This document shows positions 2,960 to 28,837 of a stretch of 64,000 bases of DNA, piece by piece. Both the position numbers and the translations under genes were made by a program. The DNA is taken from the NCBI GenBank assembly GCA_041671565.1, contig JBAZBH010000001.1:71552-135551 (forward strand). The letters run 5' to 3'. Positions within the stretch are counted from its first letter, which is position 1, and the number at the start of each line of letters is the position of its first letter. The DNA comes from Patescibacteria group bacterium (lineage in GTDB: Bacteria > Patescibacteriota > Patescibacteriia > JACRDY01). Under the pieces are notes generated by a model. That model searched no databases, had not been told where the DNA came from, and saw only the letters and a list, made by a program, of their open reading frames with translations.

Positions 2960-3880
2960 TTATTCTAGCGCCGCCTTACCGCTGGCAATCTCCGCAATCT
3001 CGGTGGTAATCGCCGCCTGCCGGGTTTGGTTATAGCTCAGCGTCAGATCGTCAATCATGTCGCTGGCCGCATCACTGGCGTTCCGCATCGCCGCCATCCG
3101 GGCGCTATGCTCAGCCGCGTTGCTTTCCAGCATCGCCTGATAAATCTGCACCTCAATCAGTCGTGGCAAAAGCTCATTCAATATCGTCTTAGCATTCGGC
3201 TCAAACAAATACTCCGTCCCCGTCTCCTGGTTTTTATGTTTTAATGTTTTCATGTTTTCATGGTTTGCCACCTGCCCCAACATTTCATCCGCCACCGACT
3301 CCAACGGCAACAACTGCTTTACCCGCGGGATTTGCCGTAAAACCGAAATAAAATCAGTGTAAACAATCACTATCCGATCATATTTTTCGGCCAAATAATC
3401 GCTTGTCACCATTTTGGACAGGAATCGAATGTCAGCCACTTCATTTAAAATATCAGCTTTCGGAAAATCAGCGACCACGGTATAGCCGAGTTTAAGGAGC
3501 GTTCTCGCGCCTTTACTGCCGAGCGACAAACAATCCACTGCCACTCCCCCGCTAGACTTCAACTTCTTAATATAATCAACTGCCAATTTTATCGCCTGCT
3601 GGTTAAATGACCCGCACAAACCGCGATTGGAAGTGACCAAAATCACGGCCACGCGCTTGATCTTTTCTCTCGGCAAAAGGAGCGGGTGCAATTTAACCTT
3701 GGTTTTCTTCGCGACATCCAAAATCATTTCCCAAGCCAAGGTGGAATACGGCCGGGTCGCCAAAACACCGTTCACCGCGCGGCGCATTTTGGAAGATGCC
3801 ACCATTTCCATCGCCTTGGTGATTTTTTTGGTATTATGGATTGATTTGATCCGTCGCCGGATATCGCGAGTGCTGGGCAT
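2960..3880 (-). CDS. atpG: F0F1 ATP synthase gamma subunit
   Basis: 306 aa; N-terminus RDIRRRIKSIHNTKKITKAMEMVASSKMRRA typical of gamma. Confidence 0.9.
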   Translation of the reverse strand: MPSTRDIRRRIKSIHNTKKITKAMEMVASSKMRRAVNGVLATRPYSTLAWEMILDVAKKTKVKLHPLLLPREKIKRVAVILVTSNRGLCGSFNQQAIKLAVDYIKKLKSSGGVAVDCLSLGSKGARTLLKLGYTVVADFPKADILNEVADIRFLSKMVTSDYLAEKYDRIVIVYTDFISVLRQIPRVKQLLPLESVADEMLGQVANHENMKTLKHKNQETGTEYLFEPNAKTILNELLPRLIEVQIYQAMLESNAAEHSARMAAMRNASDAASDMIDDLTLSYNQTRQAAITTEIAEIASGKAALE

Positions 3881-3927: not shown

Positions 3928-5448
3928 TTATTTAATTAAATAATCTAAAGTGGCGCGGTAGTCTTCAATGGCTTGCTTGAGACCGGCGGCGATTTCGTCG
4001 GTTAGTTCTTTTTTAGCAACAATTTCGGTCAGGATTTTCTTGCCGCTGGTTGCTAAGTACTTGTGCAAACCGGCTTCAAACTCGGCCACCTTCTCCAGCG
4101 GCACATCGTCCAAATAGCCGTTAATGCCGGCGTAAATGATCGCCACCTGATTTTCCACCGCCAGCGGCTCGTATTGGCCCTGTTTTAACACTTCCTGCAT
4201 GCGCTGGCCGCGGTTTAGCTGCTTTCTTGTGCTTTCATCCAAATCCGAGCCAAACTGGGCAAAAGCGGCCAATTCGCGATATTGCGCCATATCCAGTTTT
4301 AGTTTGCCCGCCACCTTTTTCATGGCTTTAATCTGGGCAGCTGAACCGACGCGTGAAACCGACAAACCGGTGTTCAAGGCCGGCCGGATGCCTTGGTAAA
4401 ACAAATCGCTTTCCAAATAAATCTGGCCGTCGGTAATGGAAATGACATTGGTCGGAATATAAGCGGAGACATCGCCGGCTTGGGTTTCAATAATCGGCAA
4501 AGCGGTCAAACTGCCGCCGCCGTAATTTTTGTTCAATTTCGCGGCGCGCTCCAAAAGCCGTGAATGGAGATAAAAAACATCGCCCGGATAAGCCTCACGA
4601 CCCGGCGGCCGGCGGAGAAGAAGTGAAATCTGGCGATAAGCCACCGCGTGCTTGGAAAGGTCGTCATAAACCACCAGCGCGTCTTTGCCCTGATCCATAA
4701 AATATTCACCCATGGCACAACCGGCGTAAGGCGCGATAAACGACAACGCCGCCGGATCCGACGCGCCAGCGAGGACCACAATAGTGTATTCCAGAGCGCC
4801 GCGCTTTTCCAATTCGGCGACAATCCGCGCTACTTTCGACTCTTTCTGACTAATCGCCACATATATACAAACCATGTCCTGGCCCTTTTGATTAATAATG
4901 GCGTCAATCGCCACCGCGGTCTTGCCGGTCTGGCGGTCGCCGATAATCAGTTCTCGTTGGCCGCGGCCGATTGGAATCATGCTGTCAATCGCCTTAATGC
5001 CGGTCTGCACCGGCTGAGTAACGGCTTGGCGGGTAATGACGCGCGGCGCGATTTTTTCCACCGGATAAAAAGCGGCGGCCTTAATCTCGCCTTTGCCGTC
5101 GAGCGGCCGGCCCAATGGATCCACCACGCGGCCAACCATGCCCGGACCGACCGGCACTTCCAAAATCCGGCCCGTGGTTTTGACTGTATCGCCTTCTTTG
5201 ATTTCCAAATAATCACCAAGGACAATGGCGCCGACACTGTCTTCTTCCAAGTTCAATGCCAGACCAAAAATGTTATTGGGAAATTCCAACATTTCGCCGG
5301 ACATACAGTCGGCTAGGCCGGAAATGCGGGCGATACCATCGCCAATTTCCACCACCGTGCCGGTTTTTTCCACTTTGGCGCCGGCCTGAAAATCGGCAAT
5401 CTGTTGTTTAAGAGTTTCGATGATGTAATCTTTGGTTGAGGTTGACAT
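3928..5448 (-). CDS. atpA: F0F1 ATP synthase alpha subunit
   Basis: Walker A GDRQTGKT; 506 aa. Confidence 0.95.
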
Positions 5449-25934: not shown

Positions 25935-26050
25935 GGGTAGGATGATAAGTTGATAAGTCGTTAGGTAGTTAGGTAGTTAGGTTATTAGGTTGTTATGGTC
26001 CCACTTCGATTAAACCTAACGACTTAACAACCTAACCACTTAATAACTAG
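25935..26050. repeat. Intergenic palindrome, family G (taggttgttaggt-type units)
   Basis: taggtagttaggttattaggttgtta...taacaacctaaccacttaataac; relatives at 3883-3925 and 22422-22470. Confidence 0.65.
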
Positions 26051-26097: not shown

Positions 26098-27168
26098 TTA
26101 ATTATCGACCAGTGATTCCGATGGATTTTGGCGGCCTTGAGTTATCTTCCAAACTTTTCGTTCAATTTTGCGTCCCCGACAATGTTTTAAAACTCCTAGA
26201 TATGATTGCAACGACTGATTAAACGACGCTTCGGTGATTAGGGTTTGTTCTAACATTTGCTTCTTCAAACGAATTTTCTTCAGCATCCGCTTTTTGGTTT
26301 TAGTCCGCAGAACAATATAACGCGGCAAGCTGACATAACCGAGAAAATCCACGCCTTGGCTGAATTTCTGGATAAAAACCTTGCCGGGGTGAAGTTCTAG
26401 CAATAGTTCCTGCTGTAAAAATTGCCTAATTTTTGTTAAGACGGATTTTAAATAATCTGAATTTTCATGAATGATAACAAAATCATCGGCGTAGCGAATA
26501 TAATGTTTGATTTTAAGCTGATGTTTTATGAACTGGTCAAAGACATTCATATAAATATTAACGAAAAGTTGGGAAGTGAGGTTGCCAAGCGGCAAGCCTT
26601 TACCGGGCGCGGTGGAAAAACTTTTAATAACTTTATCCAAAAGCCACCGAATATCCGCATTAGGTATATATTGGCTTGAAATTTTCAAGAGTATCTGATG
26701 GTTAATGCTGGCAAAAAACTTTCTGATATCGCCTTGTAAAACCCAAAAACCCCGAGTATTATTGCGGCTGACTTTATTAGCCATTCTTCTAAAATTACTA
26801 ACGGCTTTATGGGTGCCTTTATCCAGTCGGCAAGAATAGGAATTAGTAATAAAAGTTCTGTCAAAAAACGGATAAAGCTGGCGGTAAATGGCGTGATGCA
26901 ATAAGCGGTCGCGAACCGAGGCCTTATGGATATCGCGCGGTTTCGGGTCAAAGACTTTAAAATGTTCGTAACCGCCGTGTTGATAAGTTTGGTTTTTCAA
27001 ATCGTGGTGAAGTGCTAAGATGTTATTCATCAGCCGAGCGGAAAACTCCTGTACATCGCGCCGATCCCGTTTGCCTCTTAAAAACTCCGGCCAGGCTAAA
27101 AGCAGGTTTTCTAAAGAAATAATTTCTTCAAAACTATGACCGAATTGGATTTTCATACTACTAATCAT
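26098..27168 (-). CDS. Diversity-generating retroelement reverse transcriptase
   Basis: RT motifs: YADDFVII catalytic box; LPLGNLTSQLFVNIY (DGR-type GxxxSQ in place of QGxxxSP); RDIHKASVRDRLLHHAI. Start probably MKIQFGH. Confidence 0.85.
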   Translation of the reverse strand: MISSMKIQFGHSFEEIISLENLLLAWPEFLRGKRDRRDVQEFSARLMNNILALHHDLKNQTYQHGGYEHFKVFDPKPRDIHKASVRDRLLHHAIYRQLYPFFDRTFITNSYSCRLDKGTHKAVSNFRRMANKVSRNNTRGFWVLQGDIRKFFASINHQILLKISSQYIPNADIRWLLDKVIKSFSTAPGKGLPLGNLTSQLFVNIYMNVFDQFIKHQLKIKHYIRYADDFVIIHENSDYLKSVLTKIRQFLQQELLLELHPGKVFIQKFSQGVDFLGYVSLPRYIVLRTKTKKRMLKKIRLKKQMLEQTLITEASFNQSLQSYLGVLKHCRGRKIERKVWKITQGRQNPSESLVDN

Positions 27169-27186
27169 ACCCCCCCCCAACGGTTT

Positions 27187-27552
27187 TTGCCAGTCGTAGA
27201 AAAGGCCAAAACTGTTTATAAAAACTGGACAATAATTCATCGCGCTCTTCCCCGAGTTGAACGATTTGGCCTAGGGACAAAAATTGATTTTGTATTTCTT
27301 GAGCTTCTGGAATTATTAAGAAAATCGTCTTACACGCCAATTATCCAAAAAATAAATCTGCTGAGCGACGCTTTGGACAAAACTGATTCTCTGCGTTTTT
27401 TTATTCAGCTTCTTTGGGAATTAAAGCTGATTCCCAACCATCAATTCTCCAGCCTCGGCAGTGAAATAGAAAATATCGGCCGGATGATAAATGGCTGGAA
27501 AAAAGGACTAGTAATAAAAACTTCCGCCACTCAAGCGGAAGAAAGAAAATAG
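27187..27552 (+). CDS. avd: Avd-like accessory variability determinant (four-helix-bundle, 23S-rRNA-IVS family)
   Basis: ERFGLGTKIDFVFLELLELL...SEIENIGRMINGWKKGL pattern. Possible TTG start at 27187; the ATG at 27136 would overlap the RT. Lies on the opposite strand to the RT and TR. Confidence 0.55.
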   Translation: MPVVEKAKTVYKNWTIIHRALPRVERFGLGTKIDFVFLELLELLRKSSYTPIIQKINLLSDALDKTDSLRFFIQLLWELKLIPNHQFSSLGSEIENIGRMINGWKKGLVIKTSATQAEERK

Positions 27553-27648
27553 TCGCGGGAAATGAGGCGGTTGCCGGCGTTCCACTCATTCGGGTTCTCG
27601 ACCGAATTGGCGTTGACATTCCAACTGTCGTCGTTCCAGTTCGCGTTC
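27545..27648 (-). other. DGR template repeat (TR)
   Basis: 104-bp repeat of the VR; minus-sense sequence is AAC/AAT-rich (gtgAACgcgAACtggAACgacgacagttggAATgtcAACgccAAT...). Confidence 0.85.
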
Positions 27649-28010
27649 ACGGCCCACATTAACGCGCCTTATGCCATCTCTGCCACCGCCCCTTGTCCGC
27701 CAACTGGCGGACTTGGGGTTGTATTTTATTTGGGGCATAAAAAGCCCGCCAGTATAAGGCGCCGATTCTTTTCTTTTTTAATAAAATGCATGGCAACTCT
27801 TGTTTAAGGCAATACCCGAAACAATTCTCTGGCCAGACATTTTAAGACGCTCCGCGAAAGCCGTAGCCGCCGCGCCAAAGCAATCCTGATTTGTATTATA
27901 ACAGAAATAAAAAGACCCTTCTACTCCTTCGCCGTTGCGAAGTTTCAAAGGGTCTGAGATTCTCAGAGTCTAATCCGCCTGCTGGCGGCAAAAGATCTAA
28001 GGATCAAGAA

Positions 28011-28613
28011 TCAGCGGGAAACGAGGCGGGAGCCGGCGTCCCACCCAATCGGGTGCCCGACCGAAAAGGCGTTGACACTCCAACTGCCGTCGTACCAGCT
28101 CGCGTTCACGGCCCACAATGTTCCGTCGGTGGCACGAATGTAAAAGATATTCGCGTAACCATCTGCCCGGAGTGTGCCCTCCTCGCCCTTGGATTGTTTT
28201 TTAATCAGTTCCCAAAGGTGAAATAGGCTGGTTTCGTGCCGGTCGCCGAGCTCGGCGATAATCGACGCGTCCAGTGAGTTTTTGATAAACTCGTAAACGG
28301 TGAGGGTTGCCCCCGCGACCACGGTTTCAGTCTTCCCCAAGAAGTTCTGCTTGAAATTGTCGCTGAGCCAAAGCTTTACGCCCGTCTCATTGTCGGCCTT
28401 GAAGTGGTCGGCCGCGACGAACTTCTCCGCGCCGGCCACCGCGATGGTGGTGATAAATTTGAGAAGTTTCGACCATGGGTTCTCCCGACGGAGAAACCGC
28501 TTGAAAGCCTCCAACCACTGCAAGCCGTCCTTACCCGCCAACTTATCAAAAAAATCCTTGAGCGGTCCGACCACTTGGGCCAGAGCGTCGCCGAGCATGT
28601 CTTGTGTCGACAT
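28011..28613 (-). CDS. DGR target protein (200 aa) with C-terminal variable C-type-lectin-like region
   Basis: C-terminus ...WAVNASWYDGSWSVNAFSVGHPIGWDAGSRLVSR encoded by the VR; stop codon abuts the VR end. Confidence 0.75.
   Translation of the reverse strand: MSTQDMLGDALAQVVGPLKDFFDKLAGKDGLQWLEAFKRFLRRENPWSKLLKFITTIAVAGAEKFVAADHFKADNETGVKLWLSDNFKQNFLGKTETVVAGATLTVYEFIKNSLDASIIAELGDRHETSLFHLWELIKKQSKGEEGTLRADGYANIFYIRATDGTLWAVNASWYDGSWSVNAFSVGHPIGWDAGSRLVSR
28014..28117 (-). other. DGR variable repeat (VR) at the 3' end of the target gene
   Basis: Differs from the TR at 15 positions, every one a TR adenine (minus sense): T to C/G/A on the plus strand. Confidence 0.85.
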
Positions 28614-28837
28614 GGTCAGCCTCCTTTCTTGAAGCGCCGCCTCGGAATTGAGGCGAGCATTCTAGAAATCAGCCGCGGCTGACAGCCAAAACGCTCGTCT
28701 CAAAGTAATTTTTGTTAATGTACTAACTGGTTATCATAGCGTAAAACTATATTTCTGTCAATGATTTTAGATATTTTTACTCTAATTTTAAACATTTTAT
28801 GGATATTTTAACAAACAAAAAAACAGACCGTGCCTAC

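Follow-up and report, generated by a model that had tools for sequence, protein, structure and literature searches.

The locus described here can be read as a chromosomal, active diversity-generating retroelement (DGR) of the Patescibacteria (CPR) type, a reading to which we assign a probability of about 90%. A target gene ending in a variable repeat (VR), a template repeat (TR), an inverted avd accessory gene and a reverse transcriptase (RT) gene follow one another in the layout called architecture B3, and the element falls in DGR clade 2 (Roux et al. 2021, PMC8144416). A complete DGR had been named in the original prediction, and the RT, Avd, the TR/VR pair and the target are indeed all present and intact in the window, that is, the whole 64-kb stretch of DNA that was analysed. 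By the mechanism known from Bordetella, RT-Avd would reverse-transcribe the RNA made from the TR, inserting random nucleotides opposite adenines. Replacement of the VR by this cDNA would generate up to ~1e16 versions of the exposed face of a binding protein, which appears to be a soluble and divergent C-type-lectin-like protein.

Repeat pair, target and variation between samples

The TR (27555-27660) and the VR (28014-28119), both on the minus strand, were delimited by repeat search and pairwise alignment, and their sequences are MWAVNANWNDDSWNVNANSVENPNEWNAGNRLISR and LWAVNASWYDGSWSVNAFSVGHPIGWDAGSRLVSR, respectively. The pair had originally been placed at 27545-27648 and 28014-28117; the pair itself stands, but its TR coordinates were shifted by 10 nt, and in that register only 21 of 104 bases are identical. 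The correct register (27555-27658 against 28014-28117) leaves 14 mismatches over 104 nt, and the predicted count of 15 differences is right, although it is reached over 106 nt rather than 104. At all 15 the TR carries T on the plus strand, hence A on the minus strand, which agrees with the claim that differences are confined to TR adenines; with 28 adenines in the 106-nt TR, the hypergeometric P for this outcome is 5.8e-11. Each of the mismatches affects the first or second codon position of the ORF at 28613..28011 (minus strand). As expected, the VR is read in frame and makes up the last 35 codons of the target, directly after which comes the TGA stop codon. The TR contains 10 AAY codons and 17 variable codons; adenine changes in it can lead to about 1e16 protein variants and to no stop codon. 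DGRs are expected to have an IMH where the VR ends, an IMH* differing from it where the TR ends, and a GC-rich inverted repeat past the VR. The homology of the two repeats ends at the common ...TTTCCCGC, and the flanks diverge immediately beyond it in the alignment. As a putative functional element, a small GC hairpin of 5 bp (CCGCC-AGCA-GGCGG; 27975-27988, minus strand) was predicted by RNAfold 25 nt downstream of the VR. A search of both strands of the 64-kb window, in which the non-A positions of the TR were required to match, recovered the known pair and no further VR.

The target gene (28011..28613, minus strand) encodes 200 aa, predicted to form two N-terminal helices followed by a CLec-like domain at approximately residues 50-200, and neither a TM segment nor a signal peptide was predicted. 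The protein and its family profile gave no meaningful match to Pfam, NCBIfam or PDB sequences, and a Foldseek search of the PDB returned nothing at E<=0.001; the fold is modelled as a divergent C-type-lectin/FGE-like fold. The family had seemed tiny in a word-indexed protein search (12 matches), which proved to be an artefact of search sensitivity, as an exhaustive profile search yielded 3,692 cluster representatives. It is one of several target families in the RT clade and is used at about 17 of the ~75 loci. The transcript of the target gene is predicted to end at a terminator-like hairpin with a T-run (27905-27955, minus strand; RNAfold), and related spacers, when aligned, have a hairpin with a T-run at the equivalent position.

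The activity of the element was addressed by comparison between assemblies. A contig from an independent metagenome and another sequencing run (L001) shows, at the level of the two assemblies, 11 substitutions relative to the window in 2,044 bp and is otherwise identical. All 11 are located inside the VR, spanning 28022-28099 (P 7e-15); ten of them occur at TR-adenine positions and the remaining one at a TR guanine, while the TR, avd and the 5′ end of the RT gene are unchanged. The TR is also identical across four assemblies (the window, L001, L002 and L003). Because the changes are restricted to the VR and fall mostly at TR-A positions in otherwise identical DNA, it could be deduced that the element is active, and its earlier description as 'functional-looking' is thereby upheld.

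Reverse transcriptase, Avd and the gap between their genes

The RT gene (26098..27156, minus strand) encodes 352 aa and matches Pfam RVT_1 at 2.4e-22. Its start is more likely the ATG at 27156 than the position 27168, since the former matches both the homologue consensus and a 352-aa NCBI protein. The DGR motif and YxDD that had been ascribed to the gene are found as LGNLTSQ at 26589-26569 and YADD at 26493-26482. The closest solved RT is Bordetella bRT (8ub7), with an E of 1.8e-46 compared to 1e-16 for group II intron RTs. The RT has more than 8,000 homologues, and the RTs of other Patescibacteria are 60-66% identical to it.

The avd gene (27187..27552, plus strand) encodes 121 aa, with a probable TTG start. 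It matches Pfam bAvd at 2e-10 with 41.5 bits, for which the GA cut-off is 40, and NCBIfam DivGenRetAVD at an E of 7e-16 with 58 bits, under the cut-off of 80, with profile position 1 falling on ORF residue 18; only spurious PPR-repeat matches were obtained by phmmer against the PDB. The place of an Avd-like gene between the RT and the TR is as predicted, and to this can be added its plus strand, by which it is inverted relative to the RT, TR and VR on the minus strand. The reverse-strand avd is found in every related locus having upstream sequence. The inversion was at one time regarded as a novelty, which was dropped because it is the norm in CPR DGRs (PMC5758913).

Two other explanations of the locus have to be weighed against an active DGR. 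It might be a decayed or domesticated remnant, in which the TR/VR pattern reflects past activity and diversification has ceased; homologues of the target (L004 and L006) do occur in genomes without an adjacent RT, avd or TR, and the target family can thus exist without a local DGR. Against this stand the integrity of all ORFs, the presence of the catalytic YADD, the complete lack of non-A mismatches between TR and VR and, from different samples, two otherwise identical contigs whose VRs differ at TR-A positions, which implies recent retrohoming, and we consider a remnant very improbable. Still more remote is an ordinary duplication or gene-conversion tract lying beside an unrelated RT of a group II intron or retron, with an A bias arising by chance. 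Such an origin could be suggested by the best-scoring NCBIfam RT model, which is the group II intron RT/maturase TIGR04416, and by the name 'retron-type RT' that relatives carry in the source databases. However, the scores are far under the cut-offs (134.9 bits against 300 for the former, and 52.6 against 235 for the retron St85 model) and no group II intron or retron RNA was matched in the Rfam scans, so that the locus qualifies as neither. This explanation is refuted by the A-only pattern (P 5.8e-11), by bRT being by far the closest solved RT and by the recurrence of the same cassette, with A-only mismatches, at 61 related loci. We retain the active DGR as the preferred reading.

The RT and avd would be transcribed divergently from a gap of ~30 nt that holds a length-variable poly-G tract. 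This tract, of 9 G on the RT-sense strand (27170-27178, minus strand), is located between the avd and RT starts and, according to a promoter scan, inside a promoter-like site composed of CTGGCA, 18 nt and TATGAT. It is the sole G/C run of at least 7 in the 64-kb window. A poly-G tract is present at the avd-RT gap in 68 of 77 related loci, and 67 of the 70 G/C runs of at least 8 in 599 kb of related loci fall at this position. It comprises 9 G in both the window and L001, as against 10 G in L002 and L003; this difference could be caused by assembly error. Phase variation by promoter homopolymers is exemplified by the poly-G upstream of the Treponema pallidum tpr genes and the poly-C in Bordetella fim promoters. 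The tract described here, a candidate for such variation, resembles these in being a long G/C tract between -35-like and -10-like hexamers with lengths of 9 and 10 in otherwise identical DNA, but differs from them in lying between divergent genes of a mutagenesis machine. A poly-G between two divergent genes of such a machine was not described in the literature searched.

Predicted architecture of the template RNA

The original prediction had missed the structured RNA that flanks the TR on both sides. The related loci (60-77) were gathered via an RT alignment, and a leader, a long-range duplex, a 3′ hairpin and the poly-G gap tract are common to them. Their comparison suggests that the template RNA would be a discrete transcript of ~370 nt, extending from a promoter at 27903-27895 to a hairpin 13 nt past the TR, of which the 5′ ~230 nt would be structured. 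The predicted promoter is the extended -10 element TGTTATAAT (27895-27903, minus strand), conserved in position, with a predicted start at ~27888; in 36 of 63 related loci, TGnTAnnnT is located 130-145 nt upstream of the junction motif described below, and the window has it at -133. The 5′ leader domain (27771..27888, minus strand) was predicted by RNAalifold to consist of two structured helix groups. An alignment of 30 spacers, including that of the window, gave 57 pairs over the whole spacer, 48 of them with compensatory changes, and the window leader folds with a dG of -36.1 and a z of -2.3.

A three-way-junction RNA motif (P1-P3; 27657..27770, minus strand), which covaries strongly, abuts the 5′ end of the TR. 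The covariance model R1, which was built from 36 other loci with the window left out, has a single full-length match in the window (55.2 bits, E 5e-10) and one match in each related DGR locus, 73 in total. The proportion of paired cells in the junction is 96%, compared to 74-76% for shuffles and 36-50% for slid partners. The window copy carries a 16-nt hairpin insertion in P3. The motif has no match in Rfam (release 15), and an earlier description in the literature is possible. At E<=10, Rfam searches over 27000-28200 and a canonical relative returned chance matches only, and a tRNA scan and Rfam at the gathering threshold found nothing in the window.

The long-range duplex, identified by RNAduplex, is formed by a 5′ strand AAAGAAAA (27769-27776, minus strand) and a 3′ strand TTTTCTTT (27542-27549, minus strand), the latter in the linker just after the TR, where it overlaps the avd stop region of the opposite strand. 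This duplex covaries and brackets the three-way junction together with the TR, and its mean energy is -7.9 kcal/mol for cognate strands compared to -5.35 kcal/mol for non-cognate strands (permutation 0/5000). The 5′ strand is followed by a near-invariant single-stranded motif, GATACTTGG in relatives and GAATCGG in the window, whose conserved A (conservation 0.96 in 73 sequences) corresponds to 27767. By analogy with Bordetella, A27767 is proposed to be the priming adenosine. When the window RNA is folded at full length, the MFE structure retains the long-range duplex and loses P1, the 3′ strand of P1 being paired with the 3′ end of the TR.

A terminator-like hairpin with a U-run, CTTCCGCT-TGAGT-GGCGGAAG (27516-27541, minus strand), was found by a terminator scan 13 nt after the TR and is antisense to the last ~10 avd codons. 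Of 61 related loci, 50 have a strict hairpin with a T-run 3′ of the TR and 7 have one on the opposite strand; shuffled sequences yield it in 7% of cases, and the stem sequences differ among the loci. Its standing as a new feature was downgraded because stem-loops directly downstream of the TR had been reported by Handa et al. in 207 of 278 DGRs, CPR included. Furthermore, conservation of the hairpin and linker could be partly protein-driven, since the other strand encodes the Avd C-terminus. The hairpin is probably the counterpart of the Avd-binding stem-loop, and would serve as both this stem-loop and a terminator.

In the arrangement put forward here, the leader strand would pair with the linker 3′ of the TR and then present the near-invariant A-containing motif. 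It would next form helix P1 with the sequence directly 5′ of the TR, and the P1 strand would be followed by two hairpins, the first of them short, with an A-rich single strand in between. In the DGR RNA of Bordetella, for which the order of elements is available (bioRxiv 10.1101/2023.10.23.563531), the corresponding elements follow the TR; here the scaffold precedes it, and the comparison suggests a circularly permuted version of that RNA. The permuted model would place the template:primer duplex strand with A27767, the stop helix P1, the A-rich strand and the RT-binding hairpin 5′ of the TR, and solely the Avd-binding hairpin 3′ of it, the latter being also an intrinsic terminator and, on the other strand, coding sequence for the Avd C-terminus. 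The combined proposal, that the scaffold positioning RT-Avd in Patescibacteria DGRs is a circularly permuted Bordetella RNA and that the poly-G tract, conserved and hypermutable, makes the machinery phase-variable, is a tentative one, to which we give slightly less than an even chance.

The main competitor of this arrangement is a TR RNA that is co-transcribed with the RT through avd in antisense, with priming and RT-binding elements 3′ of the TR and a 5′ structure that is regulatory or contributes to stability. The RT-binding elements of Bordetella are all 3′ of the TR, where a structured Sp holds the priming A, the cPRT Stop strand, the Thumb Ring and the RT-binding stem-loop, and Handa et al. 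described putative upstream/downstream 'cPRT Stop' duplexes in CPR DGRs on the basis of 40 nt upstream and 100 nt downstream of the TR. Intrinsic terminators can leak, and the RT has no obvious long promoter region, given an avd-RT gap of only some 30 nt; if the 3′ hairpin truly terminates transcription, the RT needs its own promoter in this very short gap. On the other hand, the region beyond the hairpin is avd coding sequence of the other strand: instead of a Bordetella-type structured Sp, the 3′ side of the TR holds just the linker, one hairpin and a U-run before antisense avd. The hairpin and U-run are strand-specific (50/61 against 7/61), and covariation in the 5′ region far exceeds the need of a simple leader. 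Moreover, the order of the 5′ elements mirrors Sp 47-139, and the 5′ region pairs with both ends of the TR. Collectively, co-transcription appears unlikely, albeit with a real share of the probability, and a separate RNA with a 5′ scaffold is the arrangement that we favour.

Relation to known DGRs and significance

Among CPR DGRs, 90% are reported to have architecture B3, TR-(avd)-RT with a reverse-strand avd (Wu et al. 2018, PMC5758913). The locus shows this layout in a Patescibacteria host, and all related loci share it; the TR/VR pairs of these loci contain 1,025 mismatches at A compared to 19 others. The likeness to CPR DGRs of B3 and clade 2 extends to gene order, the inverted avd, RT identity of 60-66%, the cellular chromosomal context, a small target with neither a recognisable domain nor a membrane anchor, and a C-terminal AAY-rich VR. 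As there is no essential difference from CPR DGRs, the element can be regarded as a member of this group.

The DGR of Bordetella phage BPP-1 (mtd-VR, avd, TR, Sp, brt) shares with the element a bRT-like RT, an Avd homologue, A-specific transfer from TR to VR and a CLec-type variable protein (modelled in the present case); in both, the homology ends in GC-rich sequence and a stem-loop closely follows the TR. However, the BPP-1 element is phage-borne and this one is cellular; a 140-nt Spacer in the former contrasts with an inverted avd between TR and RT in the latter, which also has a conserved structured RNA 5′ of the TR. The targets differ as well, being the tip of a tail fibre in BPP-1 and a 200-aa protein predicted to be soluble here. 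The template RNA may work like the Bordetella RNA, though arranged otherwise. Treponema denticola TvpA and other FGE/CLec-fold DGR variable proteins are also among the closest known systems.

The element itself is ordinary, being one more active DGR among thousands in CPR bacteria, and the locus offers a clean worked example in which the VR demonstrably differs between samples. Its small target, predicted to be soluble and CLec-like and belonging to a large unannotated family, bears on the question of whether CPR targets are truly non-membrane-bound (Roux et al. 2021). In addition, the class-wide and testable RNA features bear on the priming and stopping of cDNA synthesis in DGRs outside Bordetella. 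The covarying 5′ scaffold and the candidate priming adenosine could be used to design constructs for in vitro reconstitution and for the engineering of compact DGR mutagenesis. Phase-variable switching of a targeted mutator, if true, would represent a new layer of bet-hedging.

Template and variable repeats and VR divergence between samples

A repeat search returned a direct repeat of 104 nt at 27555-27658 and 28014-28117 with 87% identity, corresponding to the template (TR) and variable (VR) repeats of a diversity-generating retroelement (DGR). The original prediction had placed the VR at 28014-28117, which the search confirmed in a corrected pairing; its TR at 27545-27648 is wrong by 10 nt, because just 21 of 104 bases agree with the VR at that position. 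Its count of 15 differences between 104-bp repeats is seen over 106 nt, after a 2-nt extension, whereas the 104-nt register holds 14. Pairwise alignment showed that the TR base is plus-strand T (minus-strand A) in 15/15 mismatches, the confinement to TR adenines that had been claimed; with 28 A per 106 nt of TR, the probability of all 15 falling on A is 5.8e-11. All 15 also affect the first or second base of a codon in the open reading frame (ORF) 28613..28011 on the minus strand, which terminates in TGA right behind the VR, in agreement with the predicted in-frame VR at the target C-terminus with an adjoining stop. The TR contains 10 AAY codons and 17 variable codons, none of them mutable to stop, giving ~1e16 protein variants. 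No further VR-like copy was found across the whole window.

A comparison between samples was provided by L001, an independent contig (run SRR18595301) that carries P0001, a 96%-identical member of the target protein cluster. Its ungapped alignment to window 28749..26706 shows 11 differences, which are confined to 28022-28099, within the VR, while the TR, avd, spacer, and RT 5′ end are unchanged. If placed at random, 11 differences would be restricted to 106 of 2,044 nt with a probability of 7e-15. TR-adenine positions account for ten of the 11, and a TR guanine for the remaining one. This last change (G to T, L001 position 654, window 28096), the sole non-adenine VR difference, fits either a misincorporation of the kind that occasionally strikes non-A positions or a plain SNP. 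The VR of the window was also found in two other assemblies, L002 and L003. Such a pattern, seen between assemblies rather than reads, is what recent mutagenic retrohoming would be expected to give.

Genes of the element and its place among Patescibacteria

The reverse transcriptase (RT) ORF is matched by Pfam RVT_1 (E 2.4e-22), and among solved structures Bordetella bRT lies nearest (8ub7; E 1.8e-46), with group II intron RTs far behind at 1e-16. The predicted DGR motif and YADD are present as LGNLTSQ and YADD, and the profile matches support this assignment. Identity as a group II intron or retron RT was rejected, both NCBIfam models scoring far under their cut-offs. The start could be assigned to the ATG at 27156 because the consensus N-terminus of RT homologues is MKIQ and the identical NCBI protein has 352 aa. 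The Avd-like gene had been predicted between RT and TR, and both its homology and position hold: ORF 27136-27552 (+) matches Pfam bAvd with 41.5 bits (cut-off 40), and NCBIfam DivGenRetAVD at 7e-16, under its cut-off, in an alignment that begins at ORF residue 18 (TTG at 27187). What had gone unmentioned is that avd lies on the plus strand, so that it converges on the TR and diverges from the RT.

More than 8,000 RT homologues were found at E<1e-20, the best being Patescibacteria proteins of 60-66% identity, and 80 related loci were collected around RT relatives on one-genome-per-species contigs. The avd gene is on the reverse strand directly upstream of RT in all related loci with upstream sequence, and this layout is architecture B3, which accounts for 90% of the Patescibacteria (CPR) set of Wu et al. 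(PMC5758913); the inverted avd is thus normal here. The 61 related loci with TR/VR pairs contain 1,025 mismatches at TR adenines and 19 others. The DGR neighbours are housekeeping genes (mannose-1-phosphate guanylyltransferase-like, UppP/BacA, Fpg, and iPGM), and database annotation places the protein in a Patescibacteria MAG; the element is cellular, not phage. Roux et al. (PMC8144416) assigned Patescibacteria DGRs to cellular clade 2, with targets usually lacking recognisable or membrane domains. Collectively, the DGR interpretation is supported, and the element is real, complete, recently active, and typical of Patescibacteria, so that its novelty as originally stated is low.

Two further arrangements were observed. 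In L007, a related groundwater contig, two tandem target-family genes each have their own VR (3651-3758 and 4391-4498), both matching a single TR (4812-4919); the 19 and 21 mismatches are every one at A. In the window, the AT-rich intergenic stretch 3′ of RT (25937-26043) contains tandem TAGGT/TTAGGT-like units as well as a long, imperfect inverted repeat whose arms, at 25946-25966 and 26014-26034, are 90% complementary.

The target sequence has no Pfam, NCBIfam, or PDB match. A word-indexed search found 12 relatives and an exhaustive profile search 3,692 representatives (642 at E<=1e-30), mostly about 200-220 aa long, and the family serves as DGR target in about 17 of ~75 related loci. An AlphaFold model built with a 60-sequence alignment has a pLDDT of 94 and reads as a divergent CLec-like binding domain following a two-helix N-terminal module. 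No hydrophobic segment reaches transmembrane level, and the protein is probably soluble. The two-helix module (residues 1-45, window 28613-28479; MLG..L..GPLKDF..KL.G..G..WLEAFKRFLRKE.PW) also occurs in VR-less paralogues, including P0011 and P0012, ~200-aa proteins without the CLec-like/VR part, which would fit a docking or adaptor module that is separable. In P0135 (926 aa), the target domain is repeated five times in tandem, and the C-terminal segment of every copy is VR-like and divergent; the protein may represent arrayed, diversified binding modules or the relic of repeated duplication. Target homologues of about 45-50% identity with a VR-like C-terminus were also seen at L004:4001-4627 and L006:4001-4633, among housekeeping genes, with RT, avd, and TR absent within 4 kb; they may be orphaned, or a DGR at another site in the genome may serve them in trans.

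Predicted RNA structure around the TR, and the poly-G tract

A three-way junction of ~100 nt abuts the TR on its 5′ side. In a 36-locus alignment, 20 of its 22 pairs show compensatory changes, and 95.6% of paired cells can pair, compared to 76% in shuffles (0/500) and 36-50% when the partners are slid. A covariance model from whose alignment the window had been left out has a single, full-length match in the window (27770-27657, minus strand; 55.2 bits, E 5e-10) and one match per related DGR locus, 73 in total; pairing in the 73-sequence alignment is 96.3% versus 73.8%, a figure biased towards the model because the alignment was fitted to it. The model has no match in the orphan-target loci, and Rfam 15 gives none for the junction in the window or canonical relatives. 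Whole-spacer alignment showed, from VR to TR, a target-gene terminator, an extended -10 promoter conserved in position, another ~120 nt of structured RNA, and the junction, with 48 of 57 predicted pairs compensated. In 36/63 loci, the predicted promoter, TGnTAnnnT, precedes the junction by 130-145 nt, the window copy being TGTTATAAT at 27903-27895. Across alignments A4-A6, the leader at 27657-27888 (minus strand), composed of this promoter, two helix groups, and the junction, is kept in all related Patescibacteria DGR loci with strong covariation and has no Rfam 15 match.

A segment directly 5′ of the junction shows complementarity to the linker that adjoins the TR on its 3′ side (27776-27769 with 27549-27542 in the window, TR-sense strand). 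At other loci, variants that keep the complementarity include AAATGAAGA/TCTTCATTT, AACGAAGA/TCTTCGTT, AAATAACA/TGTTATTT, and AATACAG/CTGTATT, and cognate duplexes average -7.9 kcal/mol versus -5.35 kcal/mol for non-cognate ones (0/5,000 permutations). This duplex is recovered in the minimum free energy (MFE) fold of the 374-nt window RNA. Starting 13 nt past the TR on the TR-sense strand, a hairpin with a U-run occupies 27541-27516, and its strict form occurs in 50/61 related loci, compared to 7/61 on the opposite strand and 7% of shuffles. Its stem sequences vary widely, and the last ~10 avd codons are antisense to it. Handa et al. described putative Avd-binding stem-loops directly downstream of the TR in 207/278 DGRs, CPR included. 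Downstream of the VR, short repeated CTTTG/CTTGG/CCTT motifs (window 27990-28013, minus strand; A6 columns 1-100) are abundant in the first ~60-100 nt past the stop codon in most related loci, preceding the target terminator; the stretch might contribute to target-site recognition or be no more than a low-complexity spacer.

The order of these elements resembles that of the Bordetella ribonucleoprotein (bioRxiv 10.1101/2023.10.23.563531), where one Spacer strand supplies, in sequence, a template:primer duplex, formed with the 3′ end of the TR and closing with the priming adenosine A56, then 2 nt on the cPRT Stop duplex, whose partner sequence immediately precedes the TR, and then a short stem-loop, A-minor-contact adenosines, a single-stranded Thumb Ring, and an RT-binding stem-loop. 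The CPR strand is likewise predicted to open with a duplex, here to the post-TR linker, followed by the motif GATACTTGG, whose A, T, and GG are nearly invariant, by helix P1, which takes the place of cPRT Stop in the order and involves pairing with the sequence that immediately precedes the TR, and by the short hairpin P2, an A-rich strand (AAUAAAAUACA), and the hairpin P3. Because the order is equal but the CPR strand is located 5′ of the TR, we propose that the CPR template RNA scaffold would be a circular permutation of the Bordetella DGR RNA, in which the 3′ hairpin would serve as both Avd-binding stem-loop and terminator. Against this proposal, the 3′ elements share sequence with the avd coding region, P1 is displaced by an alternative pairing in the single-sequence MFE fold, and transcription may read through into RT.

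Between avd and RT, 27170-27178 is the sole G/C run of at least 7 in the 64 kb window. Across 599 kb of related loci, 67 of the 70 runs of at least 8 are at exactly this avd-RT-start position, with G on the RT strand; the tract (8-14 G) was seen in 68/77 of loci L011-L090. It is flanked by a -35-like CTGGCA, which is the antisense of the Avd start TTG-CCA, and by a -10-like TATGAT, and because it lies between these hexamers, slipped-strand changes in it may switch RT and/or avd on and off. The tract measures 9 nt in the window and L001 and 10 nt in L002 and L003, the DNA being identical otherwise. Phase-variable promoter spacing is plausible from this arrangement, with assembly error as the alternative explanation of the length difference. 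No paper linking DGRs to a homopolymer tract was found in the literature searched. Either the RNA scaffold or the poly-G tract may have been described earlier; the window carries all the class-wide RNA features near the TR, and these two are the parts of the element worth follow-up.
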